A stretch of DNA of 64,000 nt from Nannocystaceae bacterium ST9. Lineage in GTDB: Bacteria > Myxococcota_A > Polyangia > Nannocystales > Nannocystaceae. The number at the start of each line of letters is the position of its first letter. Positions within the stretch are counted from its first letter, which is position 1. Positions 15,427-63,301 of the stretch are shown in pieces. Under the pieces are notes generated by a model. That model saw nothing but the letters and a program-made list of their open reading frames with translations, made no database searches and was not told where the DNA came from. Location of the stretch: contig JBLWFJ010000001.1 in the NCBI GenBank assembly GCA_048320885.1, positions 1,669,642-1,733,641 on the forward strand, in the 5' to 3' direction. The translations under genes and the position numbers were made by a program.

Positions 15427-16496
15427 CCCCTCAGCCAGCGCATGGTTCGGACCAGCGCTTCGGGCAGGGGCGTGCGAGGGTGCTGACCCAGGATCTCGCG
15501 GGCTCGGCCGACGTCGGCGCGACTGTGGCGGATGTCGCCTGCTCGGAAGTCGGCGTAGATCGGCTCGATCCCTGCACAAGGGGCGCCGAGTTCGGCCATG
15601 CCGTCGCGCAGCATTGCGAACAGCTCGGCGAGGGTCGTGCGGCCGCCGAGGCCGACGTTGTAGGCGCCGTCGCTGGGATCGCCGGGCAGCTCGCGCCGCT
15701 CGGCGGGGACTCGCTCGTGCAGGGTCGCGGCCAACAAGTTGGCTTGCACGACCTCTTCGACCGGGACGAAGTCGCGGGTGGTCTGGCCGTCGCCGAAGAT
15801 CTGCGGGCGCTCGCCGGCGGCGAGCGCTGCGACCCACTTGGGGATCACGGCCGCGTAGGCGCCCTCGGGATCCTGGCGGGCGCCGACGATGTTGAAGTAG
15901 CGCAGGCACGCGGTCGCGAGCCCGAAGCTGCGCGTCCAGGCTTGCGCTTGGATCTCGCCGATCCGCTTGTGCGCGGCGTAGGGCGAGAGCGGTCGACCGA
16001 TCAGAGCCTCGACCTGCAGGCCCTCGGGGCCCTCGCCGGGACGATCGCCGTAGACCGCCGACGACGACGCCAACACCACGCTGCGAACCCCCGAGCGACG
16101 CGCGGCCTCGAGCACGTTGAAGGTGCCGCCGACGTTGACGGCCTGGGCCAGCTCGGGTTCGGCGATCGTGCGTGGGACCGAGGCGATCGCGGCCTCGTGC
16201 AGCACGTGATCGACCCCCTCGCAGCTGGCCAGGCAGGCCGCGAGCTCGCGGACGTCTCGCTCGTGAAAGCCGAAGCGAGCTCGAGCCTCGCTCGCGCCTC
16301 GAGCTTCGGCGGCGACCAGCAGGGCCTCGAGGTTGTCGGGCGTGCCGGTGTCGAAGTCGTCGATCCCGACCACGCGCTGACCGAGCACGAGCAGGTGCTC
16401 GGCCAGGTGCGAGCCGATGAAGCCGGCGACGCCGGTGATCAGCCAGGTCCGCGGGCGAGCGCGCAGCTCGAGCTCGAGGGCTTCGATCGCGCTCAC
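15423..16496 (-). CDS. NAD-dependent epimerase/dehydratase (UDP-sugar 4-epimerase, WbpP/CapD-like, about 357 aa).
   Basis: This is the C-terminal part of track ORF 15423..18467. It contains WLITGVAGFIGSHL (a GxxGxxG Rossmann motif), YAAHK (YxxxK) and FNIVGARQDPEGAYAAVIPKW. A GTG start overlaps the upstream stop (GTGA). Confidence 0.85.
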   Translation of the reverse strand: MSAIEALELELRARPRTWLITGVAGFIGSHLAEHLLVLGQRVVGIDDFDTGTPDNLEALLVAAEARGASEARARFGFHERDVRELAACLASCEGVDHVLHEAAIASVPRTIAEPELAQAVNVGGTFNVLEAARRSGVRSVVLASSSAVYGDRPGEGPEGLQVEALIGRPLSPYAAHKRIGEIQAQAWTRSFGLATACLRYFNIVGARQDPEGAYAAVIPKWVAALAAGERPQIFGDGQTTRDFVPVEEVVQANLLAATLHERVPAERRELPGDPSDGAYNVGLGGRTTLAELFAMLRDGMAELGAPCAGIEPIYADFRAGDIRHSRADVGRAREILGQHPRTPLPEALVRTMRWLRG

Positions 16497-17338
16497 GCGA
16501 TCCGCTCGCCGCGAACGAGGTCGTAGACGTGGCCGGGCAGCGCGACGCGAAAGCCGAGCGCCTCGACTCGTTCGCGGTGAGCTTCGATGTCGTCTTCGTG
16601 GTGCATCAAGACCATCTTGCGGCGGACCGACTCGGGCAGCCTCGCGAGTCGCGAGAACGCGCCGTGCACTTGGCCCGGGTACTCGGTGAAGGTGCAGTCG
16701 TGAAAGTAGATGCTGGTCCGCGGCTCGATCGCGGTCAGGAATCCGGCGTCGACCGTACAGTCGCCGCTCCACCAGGCGATCCGACCCTCGCCGACGCCGA
16801 ACTCGAGCGAGCACGAGGGCTTGCCCGGGACGTGCTCGCTCTCGCGGGCGACCAGCTCGAGCGCGCCGCTGGTGAAGCGCTCGCTGTGCCGCCAGGGGTT
16901 GGCCTGCGCCGGCTCCCACTCGCTCGGCTCGACCCGTTCGAAGTAGTTGGCCAGCGTGCCCGAGCGTGGGTTGCCGCTGTCGTCCTTGAGGTAGCGCAGC
17001 GACGCGGCCATCGTCTCCCAGACCTCGTCGAGCACCGCACCGTGAGCGACGAGCTTGGGTCGCGGACCCCCGAACATCACGCCCAGGATCTCGCGCCGCG
17101 ACTCGTAGTAGCGCATGAACGCGAAGTCCTCGAGCCCGTACACGTGATCGCCGTGGACGTGGGTGATGATCTGGCCTTCGATCCGATGCCAGTCGAGCCC
17201 TGCCGCCCAGAGTTGATCGGGCGCCTGTCGGCCGCAGTCGATCAGCCACAGCTCGCCCGAGCGGAGCGTGACCATCGAGCACGTCGTTCCATAGTGACGA
17301 GAGAACGCGCCTCCCGCACCGAGGAAGCGCAAGGTCAT
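16493..17338 (-). CDS. MBL-fold metallo-hydrolase.
   Basis: The internal start gives MTLRFLGAGGAFS. The HxHxDH motif reads ITHVHGDHVYGL. It is coupled to the epimerase gene by a GTGA overlap. Confidence 0.8.
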   Translation of the reverse strand: MTLRFLGAGGAFSRHYGTTCSMVTLRSGELWLIDCGRQAPDQLWAAGLDWHRIEGQIITHVHGDHVYGLEDFAFMRYYESRREILGVMFGGPRPKLVAHGAVLDEVWETMAASLRYLKDDSGNPRSGTLANYFERVEPSEWEPAQANPWRHSERFTSGALELVARESEHVPGKPSCSLEFGVGEGRIAWWSGDCTVDAGFLTAIEPRTSIYFHDCTFTEYPGQVHGAFSRLARLPESVRRKMVLMHHEDDIEAHRERVEALGFRVALPGHVYDLVRGERIA

Positions 17339-17455
17339 GGTCTCGCCGGCGCTCACCGCCCCCACATTGTACAGCGTTGCCGGCGGATCCAAAGTTCTCG
17401 TCCACGACGCCGGAGGATGTTCGAGATCGTCGAGGATCCTGGAGATCCGCGAGGG

Positions 17456-18883: not shown

Positions 18884-21800
18884 TCAGCGCGCATGGACCC
18901 ACAGCTCCCGACGGCGCTCGACCTTGTCGTGATCGCGGGTGATCACGACGATCCGGTTGCTGCCAGCGACCAGCGGGACCTCGGTCGAGAACGCCAGCGT
19001 GCGCGCGGCCGGGCCCTCGAGCTCGGGGTTGGCCAGATAGAACACCTTGCGCTGGGGCTGGCCCGGCGCCGAGCCCTGGACGATCACGACCACGTCGCGC
19101 ACGCGGGTCGCGTGGCTGGCCTGGCCGGAGATCGTCACGCGCTGGCCCTCGACCTGCTCGGGCACGGCCTGGATCTCGAGCTTGGGCGGATCGACCATGT
19201 GCAGCGGCAGCGCGATCGGCTTGGCCGAGCCGCGCGCGCCCGCCTCGACGCGATCGGCCGGGATCCACAGGCGCCGGCCCTGGCCCTTGGGTCCCGCGAT
19301 CGCCAGCCACTCGCCGGCGCGACCCTCGACCTCGACCAGCGCGCCGGGCTCGAGCTCGGCGACGACCGGCATCGACGCGTCGGCGCCGGCGTAGACCCGC
19401 AGCGGCTCGCTGCCCGCGACCGCGCGCAGGCGGTCGCCCTCGATCGCCTCGATCGCGTCGCGCCCGGGCAGCAGCCGAAAGAGCAGCTTGTCCTCGACGC
19501 TCTCGTGCAGCAGCCCGTCGCCGACGATCAGCTCGAGCTCGAGGGGCAGCGCGGGATCGGCCTTGCCGGCGATCGAGATCCCGAACGCGCCCATGAACGA
19601 TCCGCCTTGGCCGAGCGGACCGTGCACGAAGAGCCCCTCCTCGAGCAGGCCCTGCTTGCCCGACAAGTTGCGCAGCAGCACGCGCGCGTCGGGGGCGTCG
19701 CCGCCCTCGTCCCAGGCCTGGAACGCGAGCAGCACCCGCTCGCCCGGCTGGAGCAGCCCGTCGCCGTTGCCCTCGATCGTGAAGGGCAGCTCGCCCGGGA
19801 AGGGCTCGCTCTTCGGTCGGCTGGGTCCGCGCGCGGCCAGCCGTGGGTCGTCGATGATCCAGTAGTCGAACGCGAACTGCGGGCGCGGGGCGCCGACGAC
19901 CGCGAAGCTCAGCTGGGCCTCGCCGTCGGGCGTGGCCTCGGGCTCGCCGACGTGGGCCGCGATCGCCAGCGTGTCGACGAAGTCGACGTGCCAGCCCATG
20001 ACCTGCAGCTCGAGATCGCGGCTGAGCGTCTGCCCGGCGCCGAGCTTGCCGATCAAGACCTCGATCCCGTCGAGCTCGTCGCGCGGGCAGTCGGTGATCA
20101 GGTGGACCTGCTCGAGATCGCGATCGCTGGGGTTGCGGACCTCGACGTGCAGCGTGAAGGGCTTGCCGGCCTGCGTGGTCGGCAGCGCGATCTGACCGGG
20201 CGCCGGCGGCTCGCCGATCGAGAGCGCGAGCTCGAGCTTGGTCTCGGCGTCGGCCGGATCGTCGATCGGCGTCCAGTCGATCTTCCAAGGCTCGATGCCC
20301 GCACGGATCCGCTGATCTTCGACCGCCGCGAGCTCGCCGACCACGGCCGGCAGCGCGTCGAGCTGGGCCCGCCGACCGACCTTGCCCTCGAGCTTGACCG
20401 CGACCTCGCGGGCCAGCCGGATCTCGGGATCGCCGAGCTCGATCGGCGTGGGCAGCTCGGCGCCCGCGGGCGGCTGGGCGAAGTAGCGCAGCGAGAGCTT
20501 GGGCTGGGCGAGCGCGGCCTCGGCTCGCGCGTCGGCCTCGTGGACCGCCGAAGGCAGGTGCAGGGTTCGCCCGCACTCGCGCGCCCGCTCGAAGCGCTCG
20601 ACGTCGTACATCGCCGCGACGCCCTCGTAGGCGCTGAGCTGGACCGGCAAGAGCTGGAGATCGGGCACGACCCCGATGCTCTGGATCTTGCGGTCGCCCG
20701 CGACCCGGTACTCGGCGATCGTCAGCTTGAGCGCGAGCTCGCGGCCGTAGGGCGTGGCCGGATGCAGCTCTTGAACCGTGCCCTTGCCGAAGCTCGCCCG
20801 CCCGAGGATCACCGCGCGATCGAGGTGCTTGAGCGAGCCACCGACGATCTCCGCGGCCGAGGCCGCCTCTTCGTCGACCAGCGCGACGATCGGGACCTCG
20901 AGCGGGATCGCCAGCTCGGGCGTGCCGTCTTGATGCTCGCGGCCGTGCGCCGAGTGGACGATGACCAGCTCGCCGCCGGTCACGACCTCGTCGAGCACGC
21001 CGGTGCCCTGGGTCAGCAGCCCGCCCGAGTTGTCGCGCAGATCGAAGATCACCCCGGCCAGCTTGCCCTGGTTCTGAAACTCGACCAGCGCCTCGTGCAG
21101 CTTCTCGGTCGTGTCTTCCTGAAACGAGGCGATCTGCACGTAGCCGACGTTGCCCGGCAGCATCACCGAGCGAACCGCCGGGATCCGAATCACGCCGCGC
21201 GTGATCGTCAAGGTCAGCACTTCGTCGCCGCGGCGAACCTTGACCACCACCGGCTCGTCGACGGGTCCACGCAAGAGCGCCTGCGCGTCGCTCGAGGTCA
21301 TGTTGACGGTCGACTGCTCGTCGATCTCGAGCAGCAGGTCGAGGTCGCGCAGACCGGCCTTCTGGGCCGGCGAGTCGGGCAGCACGCGGACCACCACGAT
21401 CCTTCGCTCTTGCCCGCGGATCTCGGCCCCGATCCCGCCGAAGTGTCCGCGGGTCTTGATCCCGAGCTCGGCGTTCTCCTCGGGCGTCAGCAGGATCGTG
21501 TGCGGATCGAGGGGCGAGAGGAACCCGTTGATCGCCGCGTACTCGAGCTCGTGCAGCGGCTCGTCCTCGAGCGAGAGCACCTCGGCGGTGAACACCAGCA
21601 CGCGCTCGAGCAGGTCGGCCGCGGTCGCGAGATCGTGGACCTCGGCGAGCGGGAATTCCTGGCTGCGCGAGCGGACCGTCACCTTCAATTGCTCGCCGAC
21701 GATCTCGGCGAAGAACTCGGGCGTGTGCAGGCCGAGCTGATCGGCCGCGGTCGCCAGCTGCCCGCGAGGATCGAAGCGGCGCGCGTCGAAGTAGTCCTGC

Positions 21801-22042
21801 TCGACCATCGCGACCGACCAGATCAAGAGCGGGAAGCTGCGGGTCTCGAGGTGCAGCCGCTCGACCAGCTCCTCGCTGGTCGGCCGCTCGGACGCCTTCG
21901 TGGTCTCGCCCTCCGGCGTGGCCTCGACCTCGCCCGACTCCTGGGCGCCCTCGGCCTGCTTGCCCCTACAGCCGGCCACGAGCATCAGCGCGAGCAGACC
22001 TGCGGATAGAAGAGAAGGCCGGGTCAGCCGCAGGTCGCGCAT
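18884..22042 (-). CDS. S41-family C-terminal processing peptidase (tail-specific protease-like) lipoprotein with a long C-terminal extension (1052 aa).
   Basis: It has an LVAGC lipobox and a PDZ-like segment. The S41 motifs are LRDNSGGLLTQG and ASFGKGTVQ. The antisense ORF 16529..22009 (+) is an artefact. Confidence 0.85.
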   Translation of the reverse strand: MRDLRLTRPSLLSAGLLALMLVAGCRGKQAEGAQESGEVEATPEGETTKASERPTSEELVERLHLETRSFPLLIWSVAMVEQDYFDARRFDPRGQLATAADQLGLHTPEFFAEIVGEQLKVTVRSRSQEFPLAEVHDLATAADLLERVLVFTAEVLSLEDEPLHELEYAAINGFLSPLDPHTILLTPEENAELGIKTRGHFGGIGAEIRGQERRIVVVRVLPDSPAQKAGLRDLDLLLEIDEQSTVNMTSSDAQALLRGPVDEPVVVKVRRGDEVLTLTITRGVIRIPAVRSVMLPGNVGYVQIASFQEDTTEKLHEALVEFQNQGKLAGVIFDLRDNSGGLLTQGTGVLDEVVTGGELVIVHSAHGREHQDGTPELAIPLEVPIVALVDEEAASAAEIVGGSLKHLDRAVILGRASFGKGTVQELHPATPYGRELALKLTIAEYRVAGDRKIQSIGVVPDLQLLPVQLSAYEGVAAMYDVERFERARECGRTLHLPSAVHEADARAEAALAQPKLSLRYFAQPPAGAELPTPIELGDPEIRLAREVAVKLEGKVGRRAQLDALPAVVGELAAVEDQRIRAGIEPWKIDWTPIDDPADAETKLELALSIGEPPAPGQIALPTTQAGKPFTLHVEVRNPSDRDLEQVHLITDCPRDELDGIEVLIGKLGAGQTLSRDLELQVMGWHVDFVDTLAIAAHVGEPEATPDGEAQLSFAVVGAPRPQFAFDYWIIDDPRLAARGPSRPKSEPFPGELPFTIEGNGDGLLQPGERVLLAFQAWDEGGDAPDARVLLRNLSGKQGLLEEGLFVHGPLGQGGSFMGAFGISIAGKADPALPLELELIVGDGLLHESVEDKLLFRLLPGRDAIEAIEGDRLRAVAGSEPLRVYAGADASMPVVAELEPGALVEVEGRAGEWLAIAGPKGQGRRLWIPADRVEAGARGSAKPIALPLHMVDPPKLEIQAVPEQVEGQRVTISGQASHATRVRDVVVIVQGSAPGQPQRKVFYLANPELEGPAARTLAFSTEVPLVAGSNRIVVITRDHDKVERRRELWVHAR

Positions 22043-22220
22043 GGATGCACAGCATAGCTTGGCCGGGCGCGGCCCTGTATGGGGCCCCGAACGAGCTCAA
22101 TGACACGGAAACCAGCAAACTCGCTCGGATACGTAGCAAAACACGCCCGCGCGCCTGGCTAACTACCGAAGATCAAGTCTGATCCGATCTGGCACGGGAT
22201 CGGCAGACAAAAATGTCGCA

Positions 22221-26211: not shown

Positions 26212-28806
26212 ATGTCTCGGTCGCCCATGCGCGCGACCCCAGCAGTTCGAGTTCCACGAGGAGGCGATGCCCAGGGGCGTCGCCTCTTCGCGTTTTTCCT
26301 CACCCCCACGCTGCTCGCTTGCGCGCCCGTGGGCAGCGACGAGTTTCAGGATCGCACGGAGATCTTGACGGACGAGCTTGACGAGATCGCGCTCGTGCTG
26401 CCCGACGACGACCGTGAGGAGCCCGTCGCCAATCTCGCGCCCGACGAGCTCTACTGCGACGTTCGAGCGCGTCCGAGCGAGGTTCGTCCGGTCGCCGATG
26501 CGCTCGCCGACCCTGGTCCCGGCGCGCTGCGCTTTCACGATCCGCTGACGCAGGTGTTGCTCGAGCTGCCCCTGCAAGCGACCCGCTTCGACACGCATGT
26601 CATCGGCACGATCGCCGAGACCGAGGTCGTCCAGGTGTTCAGCAACCCGCTCGATCAGCCGATCGAGGCGGTCTACATGTTCCCGCTCCACGAGCACGCG
26701 GCGGTCGACGACTACGCGCTGACGATCGGCACGCGAACCATCCGCGGCAAGATCGACACCCGCGAGCAGGCTCGCGCCACCTACGAGCAGGCCAAGCAGG
26801 CCGGGCAGACCGCGGGCCTGCTCGAGCAGCAGCGGCCCAACCTGTTCACCCAGCAGGTCACCAACATCGCGCCGGGCGAGACGATCGAGGTCAGCCTGCA
26901 CGTCGTCCAGCCGCTCGATCAAGACGAGGGCCGCTACACGCTGACCCTGCCGACCGTCGTCGGTCCGCGCTACGTCGGCGACGCGAGCGATGCCGCGAAG
27001 ATCACCGCGCCGATCACCGCCCCGATCATGCCCGAGGGCACCACGACCTGCGCGGGCGTCGAGATCTCGGTCGCGATCGAGGCCGGCCTGCGCCCGCGAT
27101 CGCTGCGCTCGCAGTACCACGGGATCGTGATCGATCGTCGGCACGAGAACCTCGTCGAGATCGAGCTGGCCGGGGGCCCCGCGATCGCCAACCGCGACTT
27201 CGTGCTCTCGTGGGACGTCGAGGGCGGGCGACCCGAGGCGGCGATCGTCGCCCAGCCACCGAAGGCCGCCGGCCCCGGCTACTTCACGATGACGATCGCC
27301 CCGCCGGACGTCGTGCTCGACGAAGACGCGATCGGCCGCGAGCTGGTGTTCGTGGTCGACAACTCGGGCTCGATGGAGGGCGCGCCGATCATCACGGCCA
27401 AGGCCGCGATGCAGCGCGCGCTCGCCCAGCTCCGACCCCACGACAGCTTCGCGGTCCTGCGCTTCTCGGAGGAGGCGTCCGGCCTGTCCGACGCGCTGCT
27501 GCCGGCCACCCAAGCCAACATCGAGCGCGGCTTGGCCTACGTCGACGCGATGCAGGGCGAGGGCGGCACGGACATGCAGGCCGGGATCGAGGCCGCGCTC
27601 GCGCTCCCACACGATCCGACCCGCGTCCGCATGGTGCTGTTCTTGACCGACGGCTACGTCGGCGACGAGGCCGAGATCTTCGAGTTGGTCGAGCGCTCGA
27701 TCGGCGAGGCACGGCTCTTCGGCCTCGGCGTCGGTGGGGCGCCCAACCGCTACCTGCTCGACGGTCTGGCCGCGGCCGGTCGCGGCGCGGTGATCTACGC
27801 CGGCGTCGGCGAGGCGATCGATCCGATCGTCGAGCGCTTCTACGATCGGATCGCGACCCCGGTGCTCGGCGAGCTCGAGATCGACTGGGGCGGCCTGGCG
27901 GTCAGCGACGTGCTGCCGGCCAAGCTGCCCGACCTGTTCGCCGGCCAGCCGCTGACCGTGTTCGGCCGCTACACCGGCGAGCCCCAGGGCACGATCCGCG
28001 TGCGCGCCAAGACCAAGTCCGGCGCGATCGAGCTGCCCGTCGAGTTCGACCTCGCGCAGGCGCAGAGCAGCACCGGCGTGTCCTCGATCTGGGCCCGCCA
28101 CGAGGTCGATCGCCTGCTCGGCTACCCGACGCCGGCCTACCCCAACGGGATCGGCGGCGAGCAGGCCAAGCAAGACGTGATCGCGCTGGCGCTCGAGCAT
28201 CGACTGCTCACGCAGTTCACCAGCTTCGTCGCGGTCGACGAGCGCCAGGTGCTGGGCGCCGACGGTACGCCGCAGACGATCGTCCAGCCGCTCGAGCCAC
28301 CGATCGGCACCACGTTCGAGGGCTTCGGCGAGCTCATGCTGACCGGCACCGGCCGAGGCGGCGGCGGTACGGGTCAGGGCGTGATCGGCCTGGGCAACAC
28401 CGGCTTGATCGGTCGCGGCGGCGGAGGCACGGGCGGCAGCTACGGTCGGGGATCGGGCGCCGGCTTCGGTGGGCGTGGTTCGGTCGTCCCGCAGATCCGA
28501 CTGGGCAAGGCCAGCGTGGCCGGCTCGCTCGACAAGGACGTGATCCGCCGGATCGTCCGCGCCCACATCAACGAGATCCGCGGCTGCTACAACCAGGGCT
28601 TGGCCAAGGATCCCACGCTGGCCGGACGGATCGTGCTGAAGGTCGAAGTCGGCGGCGATGGCAAGGTCGTCGCCGCCGAGATCGGCGAGGACGGCCTCGA
28701 GCAAGGCGTCGGCGCGTGCATGGTGAAGGCCGCCAAGAAGTGGACCTTCCCCAAGGCGAGCGGTGGGTTCTCGTTCACCTATCCCTTCGAGTTCTCGCCC
28801 TCGTGA
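26212..28806 (+). CDS. VIT domain + von Willebrand factor A domain lipoprotein with a C-terminal AgmX/PglI-type (TonB-C-like) domain (864 aa).
   Basis: VIT motifs read FDTHVIGTIAETEVVQVFSNP...EAVYMFPL...TIRGKI. The VWA MIDAS motif reads LVFVVDNSGSM...LFLTDG. A G-rich linker precedes the C-terminus DKDVIRRIVRAHINEIRGCYNQ...WTFPKASGGFSFTYPFEFSP. A probable lipobox is LLAC. Confidence 0.85.
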   Translation: MSRSPMRATPAVRVPRGGDAQGRRLFAFFLTPTLLACAPVGSDEFQDRTEILTDELDEIALVLPDDDREEPVANLAPDELYCDVRARPSEVRPVADALADPGPGALRFHDPLTQVLLELPLQATRFDTHVIGTIAETEVVQVFSNPLDQPIEAVYMFPLHEHAAVDDYALTIGTRTIRGKIDTREQARATYEQAKQAGQTAGLLEQQRPNLFTQQVTNIAPGETIEVSLHVVQPLDQDEGRYTLTLPTVVGPRYVGDASDAAKITAPITAPIMPEGTTTCAGVEISVAIEAGLRPRSLRSQYHGIVIDRRHENLVEIELAGGPAIANRDFVLSWDVEGGRPEAAIVAQPPKAAGPGYFTMTIAPPDVVLDEDAIGRELVFVVDNSGSMEGAPIITAKAAMQRALAQLRPHDSFAVLRFSEEASGLSDALLPATQANIERGLAYVDAMQGEGGTDMQAGIEAALALPHDPTRVRMVLFLTDGYVGDEAEIFELVERSIGEARLFGLGVGGAPNRYLLDGLAAAGRGAVIYAGVGEAIDPIVERFYDRIATPVLGELEIDWGGLAVSDVLPAKLPDLFAGQPLTVFGRYTGEPQGTIRVRAKTKSGAIELPVEFDLAQAQSSTGVSSIWARHEVDRLLGYPTPAYPNGIGGEQAKQDVIALALEHRLLTQFTSFVAVDERQVLGADGTPQTIVQPLEPPIGTTFEGFGELMLTGTGRGGGGTGQGVIGLGNTGLIGRGGGGTGGSYGRGSGAGFGGRGSVVPQIRLGKASVAGSLDKDVIRRIVRAHINEIRGCYNQGLAKDPTLAGRIVLKVEVGGDGKVVAAEIGEDGLEQGVGACMVKAAKKWTFPKASGGFSFTYPFEFSPS

Positions 28807-30572
28807 GCGGGCGAGGACCACGGATCGAGCGGATCGGGCGGATCGAGTGGCTCGCCGGCCTCGCGCTGCTCGGCTGCCTGCCGACCACCCACGAGCGCGA
28901 GCCGCTCGACGACGCACCGTCGCTCGTCGAGCGGCCGCGCTGCCCCGAAGGTTCGGCGAGCGTGGCCAGCTTCGACGCGCACGTGATCGGCGAGCTCGCC
29001 CAAGTCGAGGTCGTTCGGACCTTCGAGAATCACGGCGATCGGCCGATCACGATCGCCGACGAGTTCGCGCTGCGCGGCTGGACGCTCGTCGATCATGCGA
29101 TCGAGATCGCCGACCTGCGCATGCGCGACCTCGTCGTCACCCGCGAGCAGGCCTACGCGAGCCAAGCCGCCCCCGCAGTGGTCGAGGTCGTGCCGCGAGC
29201 GACCGACGCCTTCGCGCGCCGCTTCGAATTGCTGCCGGGCGAGTCGGGCCGGGTCGAGCTCCTGCTCGCGCGCGAGCTCGACGTCGAAGCCGCTCGCACC
29301 ACCCTGACGCTGCCGACCCGCGCGAGCGGCTGCGAGCTCGACGTCATGGTCACGCTCGAGAGCACGTTCACGGCGAGCTCGCCGACCCACGCGATCACGA
29401 GCGTGTCGACCGAGCGAGCCACCCACCTCGCCCTCGCCCAGCCGGAGTCGGACGATCGCGACTTCGAACTGACCTGGCGGCGAGCCGACGCCGACGATGT
29501 CCACGCCACGCTCTGGCTGGTCCCCGACGGCCACTTCACGCTGATCGTCGAGCCCCCGACCCACGCCGATCCGGCGCAGGCGATCGCCCGCGAGTTGATC
29601 TGGCTCGAAGGCGACGACGCTTCGCCCGACTCCGCCGAGGCCCTGGCCCGGGCGACCACGCTCGCGGGCCTGCGAGCCGACGACGCGATGGTCGTGATCC
29701 CGAGCGATCACGTGCGCCACGTCGAGTTCGAACGCGCCCTCGCCCACCACCCCGAGCGCCTGCACATGCTCGTACTCGGCCTCGACGTGATGCCCCCGAG
29801 CAAGCCGCTCGCCGACACGCGCGTGTTCGGCCTCGCCGACTCCGACCCGGCCTCGCCGACGCGCCTGCGCCTGCTCGACGCGCTGCCGCGGCGGAGTCGG
29901 GGCGCCGGCGTGGTTCGCCGCGAGGGCGAGCTCGACCCGATGCTCGCCGAGCGCTTCGCTCGACGGATCGCCTCGCCCCTGCTCGTCGATCTCGAGCTCG
30001 ACTGGGGCGACGCGCAGGTCGAATTCCTGACCCTCGCTCGCTTGCCGGATCTCTTCGCGGAGCACTCGCTCGTGCTGCATGGACGCGTTCGCGGACCGCT
30101 CGGATCGCTCGTGCTGCATGGACGCGATCGCGTGGGTCGGCGGGCGATCACGATCGAGATCCGGCCCACGCAGACGACCGACTCGCGCGGGCTCGCGACG
30201 ATCACGAACCTCGAGCGGATCGACGCGCTCTTCGGGGTGAATCGCGAGCGCCTGCCCTGCTTCCCCGACGGCCGCGAGGACCAGGCGCTGGCGCTCGCGC
30301 TCGCGCTGCAACAGCCGATCGCTACGACCTGCGTGGTCGCGGTGATCGAGCAGGCCGGCGCGCCGACGCGGCTCGATCCGATCCAGCCGCGCTGCGACAT
30401 CGAGCAGGCGAGCTCGATCGAGTCGCGCGAGCCCTTCCGCGACTTGGACAAGCTCGGCGGTCTGTTGCCGATCGGACCCCTGCCGCTCTCCAGCTTGCTC
30501 GGGGCGACTCAGATCCGACCCAGCGCCTCGCGCAGCTCGGCGAGCGCGGGTCGACGCCCTGGATTCGAGTGA
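28803..30572 (+). CDS. Degenerate VIT-like paralog lipoprotein (about 589 aa), GTGA-coupled to the preceding gene.
   Basis: GTG at 28803 overlaps the TGA at 28804..28806 in the frame of track ORF 27210..30572. The product starts MSGRGPRIERIGRIEWLAGLALLGC (lipobox). FDAHVIGELAQVEVVRTFENHGDRPITIADEFAL parallels the VIT block of the upstream protein. No MIDAS motif is present. Confidence 0.65.
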   Translation: MSGRGPRIERIGRIEWLAGLALLGCLPTTHEREPLDDAPSLVERPRCPEGSASVASFDAHVIGELAQVEVVRTFENHGDRPITIADEFALRGWTLVDHAIEIADLRMRDLVVTREQAYASQAAPAVVEVVPRATDAFARRFELLPGESGRVELLLARELDVEAARTTLTLPTRASGCELDVMVTLESTFTASSPTHAITSVSTERATHLALAQPESDDRDFELTWRRADADDVHATLWLVPDGHFTLIVEPPTHADPAQAIARELIWLEGDDASPDSAEALARATTLAGLRADDAMVVIPSDHVRHVEFERALAHHPERLHMLVLGLDVMPPSKPLADTRVFGLADSDPASPTRLRLLDALPRRSRGAGVVRREGELDPMLAERFARRIASPLLVDLELDWGDAQVEFLTLARLPDLFAEHSLVLHGRVRGPLGSLVLHGRDRVGRRAITIEIRPTQTTDSRGLATITNLERIDALFGVNRERLPCFPDGREDQALALALALQQPIATTCVVAVIEQAGAPTRLDPIQPRCDIEQASSIESREPFRDLDKLGGLLPIGPLPLSSLLGATQIRPSASRSSASAGRRPGFE

Positions 30573-31972
30573 AGGCCCGCGACCGCGAGCGAGCGCAGCG
30601 GCTCCGGGACGCCCTCGCACTCGGGCGCGGCCGAGAGCATGGCTCGCACCCGCTCGGCGAGCGTGGGCCGAGCGAAGGGGTGCTTGCCCGTCGACCACCA
30701 GACCATCGTCGCGCTCAGCGAGAATACGTCGCTCGCGGGCGTGGGCGCCGACCCCATCAGCAGCTCGGGAGCGAGATAGATGTCGTCGAAGGGCGGCTCC
30801 TGGCCCTCGACCCGCGGACCGAGCGGCCAAGTCAGACGGCGCAGGAGCTCGCCGCGAGGGACCAGCGTCACGCGACCGAGCGCATCGACGAGGGTCAGCT
30901 CGGGGCGCAGCCCGACCACGCACTCGCCACCGGCGTGAACTCGCTCGAGGATGCACGCGGTCGCGTCCGCGAGCCTGGCCACCTCGACGAGCGGCGCAGG
31001 CGAGCGCGCGTCGCTGCGGGCCAGCTTGGGCAGCGCCTCGACGAGAACGTTGGCGAGGCCTTCGTTCGTTTCGACGCGTCCGAGCCAGAGCATCGGCGCG
31101 ACCCCTTCGTAGTCGAGAGCGAGCCGATCCGCGGGCGGCAGCGGCTCGCCCGACAAGACCAAGAGCGTGGTCACCAGCACACGTTTGCCGCTCGCCAGAT
31201 CACTGCCGATCTCCAGCGAGCGACCGCGGCTGCCCGCGTGGCGCTTGCGAACGAAGTAGGTGGTGCCGGGAACCGAGTATCCATGTGCGCTGGCATGAAT
31301 TCGCCGCTCGAAGTCGGCCGGGATCAGTCCAATCGCCTCGAAGCGACGCAGCTGGTTCGACGAGGCATTGGTGAGGCTGGCCGGATACTCGTCGAGGTAC
31401 TCGGCCACCCGCGCCAGCCACCACGCGTCGTCCCCCTGCGACCAATCCTCGCTGGCGGCGCGAAGCATGAATCGCAACAGGCGCTTCTCGTGCGAGTTAC
31501 CACTGTCGAGATAAGCCTCGATGAGCTCGGCCTCGTGGTCGAGCCGTCGCCACTCGTGCATGGCCTTGCTGAACATCACGTTCGAGATCGGCGCATCGAC
31601 AAATTCTTCTTCGACCAGATACACGAGTCGACGCAGGAGCTGGCGGACTCGGGCGGCGGGCTCGGCCTGATCGTCGAGCAAGGGCTCGGCGAAGCCGGGG
31701 CCGAGCGCGTCGAGTTGGTTCGGGTCGCCTTCGCCGGCCTCGATCCGCGCGCGCAAGGCCAGCCACAGCCCGAGGTGCTCGAGCTCGGGGAGCTCCGCGA
31801 TCAGGGGCTCGAGCGCGGTCGGACCGAGCGACACGAGCGCTCGCAGGGACCGCGCCGCACCGACGACACCGAGGTTGCTGCTCGACTTGCCGTAGCCCTC
31901 GGTGAGCAAGAGATGACGAAGCCGATCGATCAGCGACCGCCAGCGCGGCGAACTCGGGAGCGTGTCCATCAT
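30509..31972 (-). CDS. Protein-kinase-like protein, probably a pseudokinase (487 aa), ATGA-coupled downstream of the giant DUF4157 protein.
   Basis: The C-terminal half keeps kinase subdomain VIII/IX-like residues ([36 protein letters not shown]). The catalytic HRD position reads GLRPE and the DFG position reads ALG. The start MM at 31972..31967 overlaps the upstream TGA. Confidence 0.65.
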
Positions 31973-34900
31973 GGATTCGTTCGACCCTGCGAACTCATGG
32001 CAGGTGTGATCACGGGAATCAAGCAGACCTGCTCGTCCGCGTTCAGCGAGATGCGGGTGTTGCCGGCGCTGTGCTCACCGTTGCGAAGCGCGTTCGTGTA
32101 GATGTCCTCCCAGCGCGACATGTTGTGCGGCGAGATGCGATCACCGAGGAATTCCTGCAAATGCGTGGACTCGATCGGATGGTGTCGCACGATCCGAGGC
32201 GGATCGCCGGAGATGACGACCGCGAGCATCGGCGTACTGTCGCGGTGCGTGGTCGACACATCGGCCTGGAGCGTGAGCGCACCACGTCCGCTCTCGGGAT
32301 CACCGAGTCGAGTCTGAAGCAGGAAATTGGCCATCGATTCGGGATTCCCCCACGCCGGTAACGAATAGTTGCCCTCCAGCGTCGTTCCGAGCTGCCGCGA
32401 CGCGGCGTTGCCCTCGGTCTGCATCCAACGGCCGCCGCCCTTGACCTCGCGCAAGACCAGGGCCTCGCCCGGCCGATAGAACTCGAAGTCCACCCGCCGA
32501 CCCACCTCGTAGGCGGTCAGCCGGCTGCCGTCGGGGTACTCGATCGAGACTCGGTTCTTGCCCGCGACGATCACTCCGCCCGTGGTCCCCAAGCTCTGAT
32601 GCATCTGCCGAAACGCGGCCCACTCGTGGTCGCCTTTGAGGATGCCTTCCGCCTGCGATCCGGCCCGGAGTCGGTCGATGACCTGAGGGTCGCCTCCGCC
32701 GGTGCCGGAGCGGACCTCCGTGCCGCCGTGGGGCCGCACCGGCATGTCGACCGGAGGAGGCCGCAATCCGGCGATCGGATTCAGGCCCATGACCTGGCCG
32801 AGATAAGGGTGAGGCATCCCATGGATCGGGCCCTGCCAGAGCACCTCGCCCGAAGGACTGCGGATTACGATGTCGGCCCGATACGCAGGAAGCTCGCCGA
32901 AATAACCTTCGATCCGCGCGCCATGAATCTCGATCTCGACTCGGGGTCGCCCGCTCCCGGACACGGCATTGCCGATTCGTCCGTTGCCGAGCACCTCGAA
33001 GGGCGCATGCACGCTGTGCGTCGACAGTCCATTTTGCGCGACATAGGCGAGATCCTGCGCCGAGGGCAAGAGCGCGGTGCGATTGGCCTCGTCGGCCAAC
33101 GCCTGATGGATCGACATCTCCGATTGTGGTCCTTCGCCACCGTGCAATCGATTGGTCGTCGGATGACTATGGGAAACGGCACGAACACCTGGGAAATGGC
33201 CCCAATCGACCGCGCCATGCTGGCCTCGAATGACCACGAATTCGCCGGTCGGAAGCTGCCCTATCCCCCATTCCACCGATGTCGGCCGGAAGCCCTCGGG
33301 TAGATCACCCACGCCGAGCGAGCGCAGGGCTCCGGGGTGATCTTGCATGATCGATTGCATCACCGCGCGCGCTTCGGCCTCGGTCGCCAAGGGGCGACCC
33401 ACGGCGACGTTGGTGGCCGTGTTCAGCTCGGCGGCGTCGTGCGAGGTCCGCATCACCCGAGTCTCGGGCGGCTCCTCACCCGGCGGGCGCGTCCTGGTTC
33501 CCTCCTCTTCGCCGGTCCGTGTTCGAGTCTCGGTTTCCTCGCCCGGCGGCCGTGTCGGCGCTCCACCCTCTTCCTCGCCCGGCGGCCGCGTCCGCGGCGG
33601 CCCTTCGTCCTCGCCAGGCCCCGGCGGGCGGACACGCGGCGTGGTCCCGTCTCCCGCGGGAGCCCCACCGAAGCGACGATTCACCGCGCCCTCGATGCGG
33701 GTCTCGAGCCGCGATCCGATCCGCCCCGGATCGAAGCGACGGAAGCGATCCAGAGCGGTTCGCGGCGCCTCGCTCGGCGGCGCGTGGGTGCCCCCGCGAC
33801 GCGAGGCTCGGGCCGAGGTGCCGGCCGAGGCGGCGGCCGAGAAGGCGCGGCTGAGATCGAATTTCTCGCCGCTCAACCACGAGGTCAGGCCTTCGAGCCC
33901 GAAGCCGACCAGCGCTCCGCCGGCGATCTGCGTCACGGCGGCGCGCGTGCCCCCGGCTCCGCCGGTGGGCACGTTGGGTGTGCCGGGATGCGGCGCCGCG
34001 GGGTGCGGTGCGTCGGGCGTGCCCGCGTGCGGCGTGGCGCTCGGGGCATCCGCGTGGGCGGTCGGATGCGGGGCGTCGGGCGTGCCCGCGTGGGCGGTCG
34101 GATGCGGGGCGTCGGGCGTGCCCACGTGAGCGGTCGGGTGTGGGGCGTCCGGCGTGCCCACGCGCGGCCGCCCGCCGCCTTGCGGACGGAAGCTGACACT
34201 CGACATCGCGCCGGCCATCAAGAAGCCCTGCCAGTTGAACTTCTGACCGAACGCGACGTAGCCGATCGTCTGCGTGATGCCTTCGGAGACCAGGTCGGCG
34301 CCGACGTTGATCGCGAACTGCACGACGTAGCGACCGGCGAGCGCCGACGCGCCGCTGGCCGCACCCGCGGCGAAGCCCAGGCCACCCCCGATCGCGCCAC
34401 CGATCGCGCCCATGATCATCGCCTGCGCGAGCCCGGTATGCCACGCCTCGCCCGACGCCCAATTGTTGATGATCTGGATCAGCCCGGCACTGACCGCGCC
34501 GACCAGGGCGCCGACCAGGATCACGGCGAACAGGCTCGCACCGGCGCCCAGGGTCACGATGCTGATCACGGCGGCCGCGATCACGACCAAGACCACCAGC
34601 ACGATCGCGACCACGCTCTTCCAGGCCGGCTGCTCCTTGCCGGCCGCCTTCCAGGCCTCGCTCGCGACCCGGCGATCGAGCCCGCCGAGCTGACCACGGA
34701 GATCCTGATCGAGCTGGCCGAGCGAGCTCGCGATCGCAGCGTCGACGCGCGTGCCGATCGTCGCGAGCGCGCCCTCGAAGCCCTGCACGGCTCGCTGCAT
34801 GCTGGCCACGCCCTCGCTGCTGGCCTGCTGGGTCTGCTGGACGTGCTGCTGACCGAGCTGCTGGAAGGTCTGGCTGGCGCCGGCCTGCAGGGCCGCGAGC

Positions 34901-37900
34901 TGGCCCGCGAAGGTCGACTCGCTGGTCGCACACTGCTCGGCGTTGCGAGCGGTGATGTCGGTGAGGGCCGCGAGCGCGGCGTTGCCCAGCTCGCCCAGGC
35001 GCGCCTCGGCCTGGCCGGCGCCGAACTGCATCTGCTCGAGCAGCGTGCCCATGCCACCGCCGAGCGAGCCCTCGATCGTCGCGAGCGTCAGCGCGAGCTG
35101 ATCGGGATCCGGGATGCCGCCGGCGGTGAACTGCCCGCGCAGCCGAACGAGGGTCTGCTCGAGCGAGGTGACGGCGGCCGCGATGCCGCGCCCGAGGTTG
35201 GCCGCGCTCGCGTGGGCGAGCTGCTCGAGCGCGACCTGCTTGAGGTAGCCGGCGTCGTCGACCGCCTGCCGCTGCGCGTGCTCCTGCGCTCGCAGGCCGG
35301 CGAGCGAGGCTGCCAGCCCGGCATCGATCGCGCCGAGGCTGGTCGTGCGCGCGCTCGCGAGTCCGTCGAGCGCCTGCATGCGCGAGGTCTCGAGCCCGGT
35401 GATCAGCTGATCGTGGGTGTCGTCGAGGGTCTGATCGACCTGCCGCGCGCCCGCGATCACGGCGCAGCGATACTGCTTGCGGACGTCCTTGAGGTCGTAG
35501 CCCTTCTTGTTGGCGGTTCGAATGAACCCGTCCTTGTAGCCCGCGGCGGTCTTGCACGCGGCGTCCTGCTGCGCGCGAGCGCGACGAACGGTCAGGCAGC
35601 CGTCCCAGAACCCGTCGTCGGCGTAGGTGCCCTTGCAGCGCTCGTAGGCGTGCGCGTGCTCCTGCCCGCGTTGGACCGCCCGCCGCGAGTACTCGGGGCC
35701 CTTGGCCTCGTGCTGGGTTCGACCGGTGGCGAAGCGAGCGTTGACGTCGGCGAGGCCCTCGGTCTCCTTCTCGGCGACGAGGTCGACGTCGGTCGAGTGC
35801 TCCTCGTCGAGCACGAGCATCGCGGCCAGCGTCTCGGCCTCGACCAGCTCGGCCGTCGCCGCGTACTCGACCTCGACCTGGGCTCGAGCCGCGGCCGCGC
35901 CCTCGATCGCCAGCGCGCGGGCCTGGCCGATCCGCTCCGAGATCGCGGCCTTCTCGACCTCGATCGACCCCTGGATGTTGGCCATCGCGGTCTGAGCCAG
36001 CCCACCGAGTCGACCCGGGACCTCCTGCTGGGCGAACGCGATCGCGGCGAAGATCTGGCTCGACGCGCCGGCCATGAACCCGCGCAGCTGATCGATCGCC
36101 GCGTCGCGGCGCGTGCGATCGACGACCTCGTTCGGACCGGGCTCGAAGCGAATGCCCTGATCGAGTCGACTCGCACGATCACCGACTTGCTCGAGCTCCA
36201 TGGTCGAGCGCTCGTAGTCGCTGACCGCGAGATCGCGGCTGGTCTCGGCGGCGCCGATCGAGCCGCCCATCCCCGAAGCTGCCCCGCCGCCTTCGCCCTC
36301 TGGTGCACCGCCACCGCCGCCTTCGCCCGTCGCCGCGCCTTCGCCCGTCGCCGCGCCTTCGCCCGTCGCCGCGCCCTCGCCCGTCGCCGCGCCCTCGCCC
36401 GTCGCCGTCGCACCACCGGCCGGACTCGCAGCAGCCGGGCTCGCGGCGGCCATCGACATCGTCGCCGCGGCCGAGGTCGCGGGGCGCTCGACCGTCTGCG
36501 CGCTCGCGCTGGCGCCGATGCCCTGCGGCATCTGCTGGCTGCCCTGCGCGACCTCGGCTTCGGCCGGGCACGCGTCGACCTCGTCGGCCCAGGAACCGAA
36601 GTAGATCTGGGAATCGGACTGCGATCGCGAGTTGCGGTTGTCGCTGCTGGGCTCCGGCGTGCTGTCGGGTCGCGGCGGAGGATCGACGTTGTAACAGGGC
36701 GCGCTGATCGTCCCCGCGGCGCCCTCGGGTGCACCCGGCGGCGTGTCGGCGCTCGTCGGCGAAGCACCGGCCGCGCTCGCGGCGGTTCCCGCCGGCGCGG
36801 CTCCGGCTGCACCCGGACCGGTCGGCACACCTTCGGGTGGCGGCTCGCTCTCGCCTTCGGCCGCTTCGTCGACGGACGCTTCGGGACCCTGCGCTTGCTC
36901 GCCTTCTACGGGCGCCGCCTCGCCCTCGGGCGTCGCCTCGCCTTCGCCCTCGACCGGCGCCTCGCCGACTTCGATCGGGCCCTCGATCAAGCGCGAGGGC
37001 CTCGCGGTCAGGCGATGCTGCACGACGGCTTGCGAGGGCGCGCCGCCGGTCGGCGCCACACCGTCGAGCAGCGGCTCGGCCGAGCGACCTTCGACGACCG
37101 CGTCGGCGACCTGATCGGCGTGTCGCTCCCAACGATCACCGACCTGCCCGACCTTGCCGGGCAAACTCAGGCCCGCGCGCTGCTGGACGGTGTGCGCGGC
37201 CTCGTGCGCCGCGAGCCGGAGATCCGGCGCCTCGCGAAAGCCGATCCGCGAGCCGGCCGTGAACGCGAGCGCGCCCATGCGTCGACTGGCGCCCGCCGCC
37301 TCGCCGCCGACGCGAACCCGGACGCCCGACACGTCGTGGCGACCGAACGCGGCCTGGATCCGATCGGCGTGGGGCAGGCCCTCGCTCGCGCCCACGAGCC
37401 CGCGCTTGGCCTCGCGGTGGATCACGCTCGCGCGCCGCGTCGCCTTGGCCTCGCGCTGAACCGGCGCCTCGTCGTCTTCGGCCGCACAGGCGTCGCAGGC
37501 CTGCTGCACGCAGGTCGGCTCGCCGTACTCGCTGCAATCCCACAGCTGCACGAGCCCGGCCTCGCCGCTCGCCGCCGACGTCGGCTCGGCCTGCGACTGC
37601 ACGCAGGTCGGCTCGCCGTACTCGCTGCAATCCCACAGCTGCACGGGCTCGTCCTCGCGCGCGGCCTCGGCCTCGCACGCATCACATTTGTGCTGGACCG
37701 GCGGACCGTCGTCGTCGTCGTCGTCGTCGAGCGGGACCCCGGCCGCGCCACCCGATGAGCCGCCGAGCTGCGTCGTGGTCGGATCGGGCTGGTCCTCGCC
37801 ACGATCGTCGTCCTCGGCCTCGCACGCGTCGCACTTGCGCTGGACCGTGGTCGCGAGCTGAGCCCAACCCGGGTTGATCGGCGCGCTGCGATCTTCACGA

Positions 37901-37953
37901 GCCACGCTCGTGGGGATCGGCCGACTCGGCGTTGGTTTGGCGCGCTCGTGCAT
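31969..37953 (-). CDS. Giant multidomain protein (1994 aa) with an N-terminal Cys-motif region, a DUF4157 (HExxH) domain, a long helical region, a TM block, repeat arrays and a C-terminal globular tail. It is polymorphic-toxin-like.
   Basis: CDACEAE appears three times and [16 protein letters not shown] twice. The DUF4157 signature reads [67 protein letters not shown] repeats x5, four or five TM helices with Gly-zippers ([16 protein letters not shown]), [11 protein letters not shown] x4 and RPPGEEEG repeats are present. The C-terminal 500 aa are globular. Confidence 0.8.
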
Positions 37954-37959
37954 GGAGGT

Positions 37960-38982
37960 TCAAGCGTCCGAGGGCCCTCGCTCGCGCGGGCGCCCGGTCA
38001 ATCGCTCGACGATCGCCTCGGGCGACGCGTCGTCGAGCGCCAGCGATCGTCCGAGCCGCTCGATCATCGCCATGATCTCGGGCGGCGGCCCGGCCTCGTT
38101 CGGCTGCTGGAGCGCGCCGATCAAGCTCGGCAACACTTCGTCGCCGAGCGACTCGATCGTGCTCGCTACCGCCGCGAGCGTCCGCGGATCCAGCTGGGGC
38201 GTCGACGCGCTGCTCGGCAGCCGGGCCACGTCGTCGAGCAGCCGCGCGGCCAGCTCGGGATCGACGTAGCCCTTGCGGCCCGCGCTCTGCAGCAGCTCGA
38301 GCACGAGCGGCGTCATCGTGCGAGCGAGCGGCATGAACTCTCGCGGAAGCGCGGTCGATTCGGTCTCGATCGCTTCGTCGTCGATCGGCTCGCGCGAGTC
38401 CAGCCCGATCGCCCCGCGAAGGTCCGCGCCCTCGAGCTTCGCGCCCGCGAGCTCGGCCTCGCCGAGATCGGCCCCGCGCAGATCCGCGTCGCTCAGATCC
38501 GCGTCGCGCAGGTCGGCCCCGCGCAAGTCGGCCCCGCGCAGGTCCAACCCCTCGCCCGAGATCCGAACCAAGACGGCCCCGCGCAAGCTCGCCCGCGAGA
38601 GATCCGAGTCGGTCAGCAGCGCGCCGGTGAAGTCGGCCCGATCGAAGTGCGCCCCGCGAGCCGTGCCGTTCTCGAAGCGGGCGCGCACGAACGAGGCCTC
38701 GCTCGCGCGCGCTCGATCGAAGTCGCACATGCGCAGGCGAGCGTCGCCGAAGTCGGCTCGCTCGAGTCGAGCGTCGCGCAACATGCAGCTACGCCACTCG
38801 ACCGCGCCCAGCTTGGCGTCACGCAGATCGCAGTCGTCGAGCACGAGCTGATCGGCGCGCAGCCCCACGAGCTGAATGCCGCGCAGATCGGCGCCCACGA
38901 ACGCGAGGTCGCGGGCTCGTCGGCGACCCGCGAGCAAGCGCCGAAGCGTCTCGCCAGGATCGCCGCGGAGCTCGTCGACCAC
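37960..38982 (-). CDS. Pentapeptide-repeat protein with a C-terminal non-repeat domain (340 aa).
   Basis: Tandem A(D/N)LxG pentapeptides run through LDLRGADLRGADLRDADLSDADLRGADLGEAELAGAKLEGADLRGA. The gene ends 6 nt before the giant gene. Confidence 0.85.
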   Translation of the reverse strand: MVDELRGDPGETLRRLLAGRRRARDLAFVGADLRGIQLVGLRADQLVLDDCDLRDAKLGAVEWRSCMLRDARLERADFGDARLRMCDFDRARASEASFVRARFENGTARGAHFDRADFTGALLTDSDLSRASLRGAVLVRISGEGLDLRGADLRGADLRDADLSDADLRGADLGEAELAGAKLEGADLRGAIGLDSREPIDDEAIETESTALPREFMPLARTMTPLVLELLQSAGRKGYVDPELAARLLDDVARLPSSASTPQLDPRTLAAVASTIESLGDEVLPSLIGALQQPNEAGPPPEIMAMIERLGRSLALDDASPEAIVERLTGRPRERGPSDA

Positions 38983-63243: not shown

Positions 63244-63301
63244 CTCGGTCGCGTCCGAGAGGTCGTCGAGCGGTCGGCGAGACTCCACTGCGTGCAGGGT
63301 A

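Follow-up and report, generated by a model that had tools for sequence, protein, structure and literature searches.

A DUF4157 Giant-Protein Operon of Nannocystaceae Bacterium ST9 as a Probable Orphan Contractile-Injection Effector Module

Operon Organization and Main Finding

A 64,000-nucleotide stretch of the Nannocystaceae bacterium ST9 genome (hereafter, the window) contains a three-gene operon on the minus strand, which encodes a pentapeptide-repeat protein (nt 37960-38982, 340 aa), a giant protein with a DUF4157 domain (31969-37953, 1994 aa), and a kinase-like protein (30509-31972, 487 aa). The operon probably constitutes an orphan module of a contractile injection system (CIS), made up of an effector (the giant, Tme-like and polymorphic), an immunity protein, and an accessory protein. 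The general kind of system has already been published; the helper and the kinase-like protector appear not to have been described. The gene order and coupling given in an earlier note on this DNA were all present. The pentapeptide and giant genes are separated by a 6-nt gap (...GCT TGA acctcc ATG; TGAacctccATG), and the giant and kinase-like genes share an ATGA overlap (...CCA TGA TGG), both junctions having been read directly. The G+C content at third codon positions was 0.82-0.87, GC1 exceeded GC2 in all three open reading frames (ORFs), and homologs were found for each of them; therefore, these are real genes and not chance ORFs of high-G+C DNA. The downstream kinase-like protein was 100% identical to the hypothetical protein ACNOYE_07165 of Nannocystaceae bacterium ST9.

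The Giant as a Member of a Polymorphic-Toxin Family

More than 130 homologs of the giant, 1300-3000 aa in length, were found, and PF13699 (DUF4157, now eCIS_core) was present in all but one of the 120 listed. In the giant, this model matched aa 198-261 (E = 7.7e-12, 45.7 bits versus a cut-off of 22), so that the DUF4157 domain proposed earlier survived a profile search above the gathering score. The C-terminal motif of the domain (12 residues, aa 247-258) holds HEAAH, and the HExxH residues H250, E251, and H254 were invariant in 23 aligned family members. According to BLAST, the parts conserved in the family were aa 103-323 (Cys motif and DUF4157), 414-480, 571-1276 (trunk and transmembrane (TM) block), and 1342-1432, the last being kept in close homologs. 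Similarity ended at about aa 1432-1500 in all homologs except P0001, the only one in which it extends through the entire tail (56% identity over 480 aa). The C-termini of the relatives carry YwqJ deaminase, PT-HINT, EndoNS2, GH-E, LHH, M23, lipase, and other domains assigned by Pfam. Because the trunk is conserved and the C-termini are swapped among known toxin domains, the giant bears the polymorphic-toxin signature and is a member of a widespread family built of a conserved trunk and a swapped tail; the adjacent downstream gene co-varying with the toxin domain, also typical of such systems, was found as well. The toxin-like composite layout suggested from the sequence is backed by this modularity and by the many Pfam toxin domains, and the tail of the giant itself is presumably toxic.

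The region that had been read as about 600 aa of helix is not a linker, since the homologs show it to be the conserved trunk of the family. Over aa 571-1112, it was 30-64% identical in about 85 homologs (BLAST) and was found by tblastn in 19 loci. The hydrophobic Gly-rich block behind it (aa 1107-1250; Kyte-Doolittle windows 1107-1165 and 1178-1197) was 40-73% identical in homologs. The Cys motifs, the TM block, and the three repeat arrays reported for the giant were all recovered. CDAC occurs at aa 41, 90, and 153, and a second Cys motif of 16 residues occurs at aa 104 and 135; VQxWDC...PTC and VQxKCxAC were kept in the family consensus, and the BLAST matches began at aa 103-135 in most homologs. 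A further short Cys motif (aa 414-480) was kept in many homologs, with C420 and C462 invariant. Tandem Repeats Finder detected a GEGAAT array (18 nt x 5, nt 36318-36407) inside the linker of aa 324-570, and an array of an 11-residue unit (36 nt x 3.1) and a TRPPGEE array (36 nt x 2.3) within aa 1277-1499.

Linkage of Homologous Loci to CIS Clusters

In 11 of the 18 loci with the trunk, the gene directly 5' of the giant encodes an AAA ATPase of 700-860 aa; from tblastn and ORF clustering, this gene is the last member of a conserved upstream gene set. Metagenome contigs L084 and L085 were used to extend upstream of the giant loci. The former encodes Phage_base_V, gp25, Baseplate_J, and Tail_P2_I (Pfam), followed by the AAA gene and the gene for a protein designated d290; the latter has the same set by tblastn, and the N-terminus of a giant follows the AAA and d290 genes. 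In Myxococcus xanthus AM003 (L013), the order is giant, 249-aa gene, pentapeptide gene, and Pvc16_N (E = 5e-35). No AAA gene was found within 10 kb upstream in L008, L018, and the Nannocystaceae locus L011. The giant lies at the 3' end of a CIS cluster, near the AAA ATPase, baseplate genes, or Pvc16, in most homologous loci, and the family is CIS-linked. The window copy is an orphan module, away from any CIS gene within 64 kb, since the CIS genes of the homologous loci were undetectable there. Of the features of eCIS-associated toxins (EATs; eCIS, extracellular CIS), the N-terminal DUF4157 is present in the giant, and a position within or next to a CIS operon was found for most homologs and not in the window. 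The proposal of an undescribed module independent of eCIS has to be given up, as most homologs sit at the 3' ends of CIS clusters and the architecture matches that of published Tme-like effectors.

Several other genes recur around the homologous giants. Smaller DUF4157 proteins (400-540 aa), some of them fused to OmpA, are encoded beside the giant in L002 (8009-11008), L001 (439-1653), and L016 (8239-9849), and sigma-54 activator genes occur near the giant in the same three loci; neither was seen in the window. Immediately 5' of the M. xanthus AM003 giant (L013, 5597-8847) are the genes for a DUF2019/HEAT protein and for a Ser/Thr kinase that looks active (Pkinase, E = 1e-30). The 3' edge of CIS-linked loci (L003, L010, L014, L015, and L029), beyond the pentapeptide gene or the giant, repeatedly holds large genes for glycosyltransferases, capsule synthesis, and methyltransferases, and also the gene for d290, a conserved protein of about 290 aa with a weak DUF922 match.

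Two Domains of the Tail

The tail, described earlier as a globular unit of roughly 500 aa, is indeed present and consists of two separate domains, a JAMM/JAB-like domain and a terminal domain named dom2. An exhaustive HMMER search with aa 1500-1994 returned 194 hits, 150 of which were listed. About 149 of the 150 listed proteins (120-4700 aa) carry the JAB-like domain; it is C-terminal in 46 of the 149 and is followed by more than 150 aa in 89 (38 unrelated clusters among 98). Ten representative C-termini from behind the domain had no Pfam match, and D…ExK-like motifs were visible by eye in several of them. The JAMM motif of the giant comprises E1561, H1595-x-H1597, and S1631-x-x-D1634. The two H, the S, and the D were nearly invariant in 27 JAB-like sequences, and all five motif residues were invariant in four; the conserved context includes the E (in EWGLG), HxH, PSxxD, and a further H. 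The AlphaFold model of the domain reached a pLDDT above 90. Nothing significant was obtained in the PDB with either the Foldseek search of the tail model or the sequence search of the tail. None of the 27 JAB-like members matched the Pfam JAB models (JAB, Prok-JAB, RadC, and DUF4329), even at E values up to 10, and a scan of viral contigs for the JAB-like domain found nothing. Judged by its sequence, the region of aa 1506-1745 seems to represent a new, divergent clade of JAB-like domains that Pfam does not contain.

Among the matches listed, dom2 was limited to P0001, P0129, P0187, and P0208. Residues D1822 and E1836-x-K1838 were invariant in five dom2 sequences. In the AlphaFold model (pLDDT 50-80), dom2 is arranged as helix, strands, and helix, an order compatible with the PD-(D/E)xK fold. 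The invariant D1822 and E1836-x-K1838 fall on consecutive predicted strands after a helix, which suggests that dom2 may be a PD-(D/E)xK-type nuclease. A WOPR/Gti1-Pac2-like assignment was rejected, as the match to the fungal YHR177W (giant aa 1826-1870, E = 0.11) was non-significant and probably due to chance. The pattern common to dom2 and YHR177W is P..E.K.G..RW...S.SR..G..L (window 31972-32721, minus strand).

The Downstream Protein and Its Co-Variation with the Tail

The AlphaFold model of the downstream protein (pLDDT 82, pTM 0.70) is helical at aa 9-213 and has a kinase fold at aa 230-487; the two parts are referred to as ImmN and PsiK, respectively. Foldseek matched the model to the kinase domains of PknA/PknB (E = 5e-11, TM-score 0.65-0.70 over the target), and the Pfam Pkinase match covered the C-lobe only and was below the curated cut-off. 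Close homologs have GLRPE in place of HRDLKPxN, PRG in place of DFG, and VLVT in place of VAIK (no Lys), and G354, R356, P357, E358, P372, and R373 were invariant in all eight aligned PsiK sequences. As the kinase fold is present and the catalytic residues are replaced, PsiK is a pseudokinase, in agreement with the degenerate catalytic motifs noticed earlier.

Both domains of the tail co-vary with the parts of this protein in a small sample (seven JAB-bearing loci and four dom2 loci). In L001, the tail was 56% and the downstream gene 45% identical to the window counterparts; L002 and L003 differ in their tails, and their downstream genes are unrelated. The L092 protein P0187, an unrelated scaffold of 1271 aa ending in dom2, overlaps by 1 nt with a gene for a 201-aa ImmN homolog (aa 14-217 only, E = 5e-20), and in L093 a dom2 gene on an unrelated scaffold is directly followed by an ImmN-only homolog (E = 1e-22). 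An ImmN homolog stood directly after the dom2-bearing gene in four of four loci. Conversely, P0124 in L094 ends in the JAB-like domain and is directly followed by a 260-aa PsiK-only homolog (aa 239-480, E = 1e-23). Where the JAB-like domain is combined with another tip (L097, L025, L095/96, and L070), a small gene comes directly downstream, and PsiK is encoded by the one after it; overall, a PsiK-family gene was within the first two downstream genes in seven of the seven JAB-bearing loci examined. From these results, ImmN tracks dom2, PsiK tracks the JAB-like domain, and the two halves segregate independently; the window protein fuses both partner domains, in an order that mirrors that of the two tail domains. 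The idea that the ATGA-coupled gene is the immunity partner stands insofar as the gene co-varies with the tail, and needs correction insofar as the pseudokinase is only half of the protein and dom2 is tracked by the N-terminal helical domain. PsiK as the immunity determinant for dom2 was rejected, as the dom2 genes of other loci have only the helical domain encoded behind them. An immunity function would be a plausible role for the downstream protein, judging from these sequence relationships. The JAB-like/pseudokinase pairing and the fused mirror-order partner protein look new; no kinase-fold immunity protein was reported in the papers searched, where only EssB of the type VII secretion system came up.

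Full-length ImmN-pseudokinase homologs (40-70% identical) were also found on short contigs where no toxin gene was seen beside them (L089/L090, 340-1800; L088, 3087-4589) and may be orphan immunity genes. The L089 copy adjoins an RCC1-repeat gene. A 174-aa gene upstream of the L088 homolog was considered as a stand-alone dom2 and proved unrelated.

The Pentapeptide-Repeat Partner

The first gene of the operon matched PF00805 (E = 5.7e-35) in six stretches of tandem A(D/N)LXX repeats. Its orthologs adjoin homologous giants and are about 50% identical from end to end, the 145 non-repeat residues at the C-terminus included. The gene order of the window, with the pentapeptide gene first, differs from that of the homologs; in L001, L002, and L003, the giant is followed by a variable small gene and then by a pentapeptide gene of about 330 aa. 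By tblastn and ORF clustering, the pentapeptide gene was beside the giant in 14 of the 15 trunk-bearing loci with enough sequence, the exception being L014, and the neighbour seen in the window is thus conserved. These loci span Cyanobacteria, Roseiflexaceae, Desulfosarcina, Cellvibrionaceae, Acidobacteriota, and Myxococcus. Among about 65 DUF4157 loci lacking the trunk, by contrast, there were only three weak, repeat-only pentapeptide matches, and therefore the pentapeptide protein tracks the trunk and not DUF4157 or the toxin tip. Since it goes with the trunk rather than the tip, it is likely a dedicated trunk accessory, with a chaperone or adaptor as its probable role. No mention of a pentapeptide partner of DUF4157 effectors was encountered in the literature searched, and the pentapeptide/trunk pairing looks new.

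Proposed Mechanism and Alternative Explanations

As a Tme-like effector, the giant would dock to the spike or tube initiator of a CIS through its N-terminal DUF4157 (HExxH), as in characterised systems. By analogy with phage tape-measure proteins and Tme, the trunk (about 530 aa) and the Gly-zipper TM block may be housed in the tube and, once ejected, enter a membrane. The exchangeable tail would deliver a JAMM/JAB-like metal-dependent hydrolase domain and the D…ExK terminal domain, probably a nuclease. The producer would be protected by the ATGA-coupled downstream protein, in which ImmN would neutralise dom2 and PsiK would bind the JAB-like domain, either as an immunity protein or by holding a release peptidase in check. 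Delivery would presumably use a CIS encoded elsewhere in the genome.

Several observations weigh against this explanation. In line with the earlier statement that no delivery machinery was in view, Pfam scans of about 35 ORFs found no CIS, T6SS (type VI secretion system), or Rhs genes in the window, and CIS genes taken from the homologous loci gave no match there when used as tblastn queries. The giant gene follows an AAA ATPase gene in homologs, whereas tme lies upstream of baseplate genes. A protein of 2000 aa with TM helices is an awkward tube cargo, and the likeness to Tme, an analogy, is one of architecture and DUF4157. No tape-measure match was obtained when the whole giant and the trunk were compared with the PHROGs HMMs by hmmscan, the original claim for Tme having used profile-profile methods. 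No Pfam, PDB, or fold match was found for dom2, nor a sequence or fold match to any nuclease, profile searches included. Lastly, the pseudokinase could be a regulator instead of an immunity protein.

Among the alternatives, a possible but distinctly less likely one concerns the JAB-like domain, which might be a self-processing or release peptidase (a pre-toxin domain) that frees the terminal toxin after delivery, with the pseudokinase as its inhibitor or timer. The diverse sequence behind the domain in the majority of listed proteins, the full set of JAMM catalytic residues, and a position identical to that of releasing peptidases in polymorphic toxins (PMC3482391) argue for it. On the other hand, the domain is C-terminal in nearly a third of the listed proteins, the JAB-terminal protein and stand-alone pseudokinase of L094 resemble a toxin-immunity pair, and Zhang et al. 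(PMC3482391) counted two clades of JAB among the toxin domains, with immunity families of their own.

It is unlikely that the giant is a CIS-independent, self-contained membrane toxin, uncoupled from the machine in Myxococcota, whose TM block translocates the tail and whose chaperone is the pentapeptide protein; it might then reach its target through vesicles, by exchange of outer membrane, on lysis, or by inserting into the membrane of the producer itself. The 64 kb without a CIS gene, the three loci (one of them from Nannocystaceae) with no AAA gene upstream, the different gene order of the window, and the strongly conserved TM block are consistent with such a toxin. Against it stand Pvc16_N right after the pentapeptide gene in the M. 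xanthus locus, the AAA gene directly upstream in most trunk-bearing loci, and the N-terminus of the giant, where the translation shows neither a signal peptide nor a lipobox. Moreover, the genes for eCIS and T6SS effectors are commonly distant from those of their machine.

We regard it as similarly improbable that either PsiK is a dedicated immunity or decoy protein for an unclassified JAMM-like toxin, or the trunk and pentapeptide protein form a self-sufficient membrane-translocation device working without a contractile machine in Myxococcota, the two being taken together. If the immunity conferred by PsiK were substrate mimicry, the JAMM-like toxin would attack Hanks-type kinases or kinase-fold proteins of rival bacteria.

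The least probable explanation, a structural or tape-measure-like CIS component that acts on the producer and is accompanied by a signalling pseudokinase, draws on the altered physiology of producers of Tme and Sle1 in Streptomyces development (PMC11126660; PMC13277306) and on the abundance of Ser/Thr kinase signalling in myxobacteria, including the STK-TPR gene of the window, and is opposed by the classic interbacterial toxin domains at the swapped C-termini of relatives, by the loss of catalytic kinase residues across the PsiK family, and by a strict co-variation of two domains with two partners on unrelated scaffolds, which is a signature of toxin-immunity pairs and not of signalling partners.

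Feature Coordinates and Genomic Context

The features of the operon are listed in Table 1.

Table 1. Domains and regions encoded by the operon (window coordinates).
Feature	Position (nt)	Strand	Basis
Pentapeptide-repeat gene, 340 aa	37960..38982	-	PF00805, orthologs, synteny
Pentapeptide protein, repeat beta-helix, ~aa 20-195	38398-38925	-	
Pentapeptide protein, family-specific non-repeat C-terminal domain, aa 196-340	37963-38397	-	
Giant, disordered basic/Pro-rich N-terminus, then Cys motifs, aa 1-170	37444..37953	-	Translation, family consensus, BLAST
Giant, DUF4157/eCIS_core/'PVC-metallopeptidase' domain with HEAAH, aa 171-323	36985..37443	-	PF13699
Giant, low-complexity E/G/A/P linker, aa 324-570	36244..36984	-	Tandem Repeats Finder, conservation
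Giant, conserved trunk region defining the family, aa 571-1100	34654..36243	-	Homolog identity, tblastn
Giant, Gly-zipper TM block, ~3-5 helices, aa 1101-1276	34126..34653	-	Kyte-Doolittle, homolog identity
Giant, repeats and conserved aa 1342-1432, junction of trunk and variable tail, aa 1277-1499	33457..34125	-	Tandem Repeats Finder, BLAST
Giant, JAMM/JAB-like domain, aa 1506-1745	32719..33438	-	HMMER search, motif, AlphaFold model
Giant, dom2, putative toxin proper, aa 1756-1994	31972..32688	-	Shared set, invariant residues, model
Downstream protein, all-helical ImmN, putative immunity determinant for dom2, aa 1-225	31298..31972	-	Co-occurrence, model
Downstream protein, Hanks-type pseudokinase PsiK, partner of the JAB-like domain, aa 231-487	30512..31282	-	Foldseek, motifs, co-occurrence

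The window has a G+C content of about 70% and a myxobacterial gene content, including an STK-TPR kinase (60364-63885), an RCC1-repeat protein, Roadblock/LC7, and DUF4388. Genes for an alpha/beta hydrolase and a molybdopterin oxidoreductase lie upstream of the operon on the same strand. A plus-strand gene that converges on the operon (about 28809-30572, 587 aa, without a Pfam match) directly follows a VIT-VWA gene (26212-28806). Its 3' end overlaps that of the kinase-like gene by about 64 nt (30509-30572), and the frame plot favours the plus-strand gene. Elsewhere in the window, a 320-aa protein of metallo-beta-lactamase fold (16493-17455, minus strand) matched the Pfam model Anti-Pycsar Apyc1 (PF23023; E = 6.7e-21, 75 bits versus a cut-off of 50). 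The context of this gene is chromosomal, and it adjoins a PDZ-S41 peptidase gene (18884-22096).

Significance and Comparison with Known Systems

DUF4157 effectors are the main predicted cargo of CIS, and the long 'linker' is here a conserved trunk with TM helices and a pentapeptide partner. For a loading or chaperone factor, this partner is a concrete candidate, and as such it matters for engineering CIS to deliver proteins. Two putative toxin-partner pairs absent from Pfam are defined by the tail, whose JAMM-like domain, paired with a pseudokinase, occurs in about 190 protein clusters. With the mirror-order fusion set against two tandem toxin domains, the rule of one partner for one domain becomes directly testable in a single operon.

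The 2247-aa protein Tme (BN159_7576) of Streptomyces davawensis combines DUF4157 with coiled coils and TM helices and has a nuclease at its C-terminus (Nagakubo et al., Nat Commun 2024, PMC11126660). Tme co-purifies with both the spike and the tube initiator, and Tme-like genes occur in the CIS clusters of several phyla (PMC11126660). Like Tme, the giant is encoded by a very large ORF (about 2000-2250 aa) and has both features of Tme-like proteins, the N-terminal DUF4157 and multiple TM helices. The two also share a long, largely non-globular middle region (with coiled coils in Tme) and an exchangeable C-terminal enzymatic domain of nuclease type (a putative one in the giant), and both families are present in distant phyla and linked to CIS clusters. 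In contrast to Tme, the giant has no CIS genes in its window and no tape-measure match in the PHROGs HMMs, and its homologs follow an AAA ATPase at the 3' end instead of preceding the baseplate genes, so that the synteny of Tme-like genes was not found. The giant further differs in its pentapeptide partner, JAB-like pre-terminal domain, and putative immunity gene; neither a pentapeptide protein nor immunity is mentioned in the Tme paper.

DUF4157 received the name PVC-metallopeptidase from Zhang et al. 2012 (PMC3482391); it is an eCIS core domain that often precedes a toxin across a 'linker' of over 1000 aa (Geller et al. 2021, PMC8213781). The giant resembles EATs (PMC3482391; PMC8213781; PMC11297309) in the order of N-terminal DUF4157, linker of more than 1000 aa, and C-terminal toxin (a putative one in the giant), and antitoxins are encoded beside some EATs. 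What defines EATs is that they lie close to an eCIS operon (88% within ten genes), whereas the giant is not near one, and its 'linker' is a conserved trunk and TM block with an accessory protein of its own.

In motif, the JAB-like domain is closest to Tox-JAB-2 (PMC3482391), with its signature of E, H[ST]H, S, and D. Like the JAB toxin domains, it occurs in the C-terminal region of a polymorphic toxin and is paired with a dedicated partner protein. Unlike them, its family has no match to DUF4329 or another Pfam JAB model (27 members), it is usually followed by a further variable domain, and its partner is a pseudokinase and not Imm65 or Imm-NTF2-2.

TagAB and DUF2169-pentapeptide accessory proteins are known in T6SS (PMC13584744). 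As in TagAB, a pentapeptide-repeat protein is encoded with an effector or spike module of contractile injection, and an adaptor role is proposed for both; in contrast to TagAB, the partner of the giant has no DUF2169, carries another C-terminal domain, and is tied to the DUF4157 trunk and not to VgrG/PAAR.

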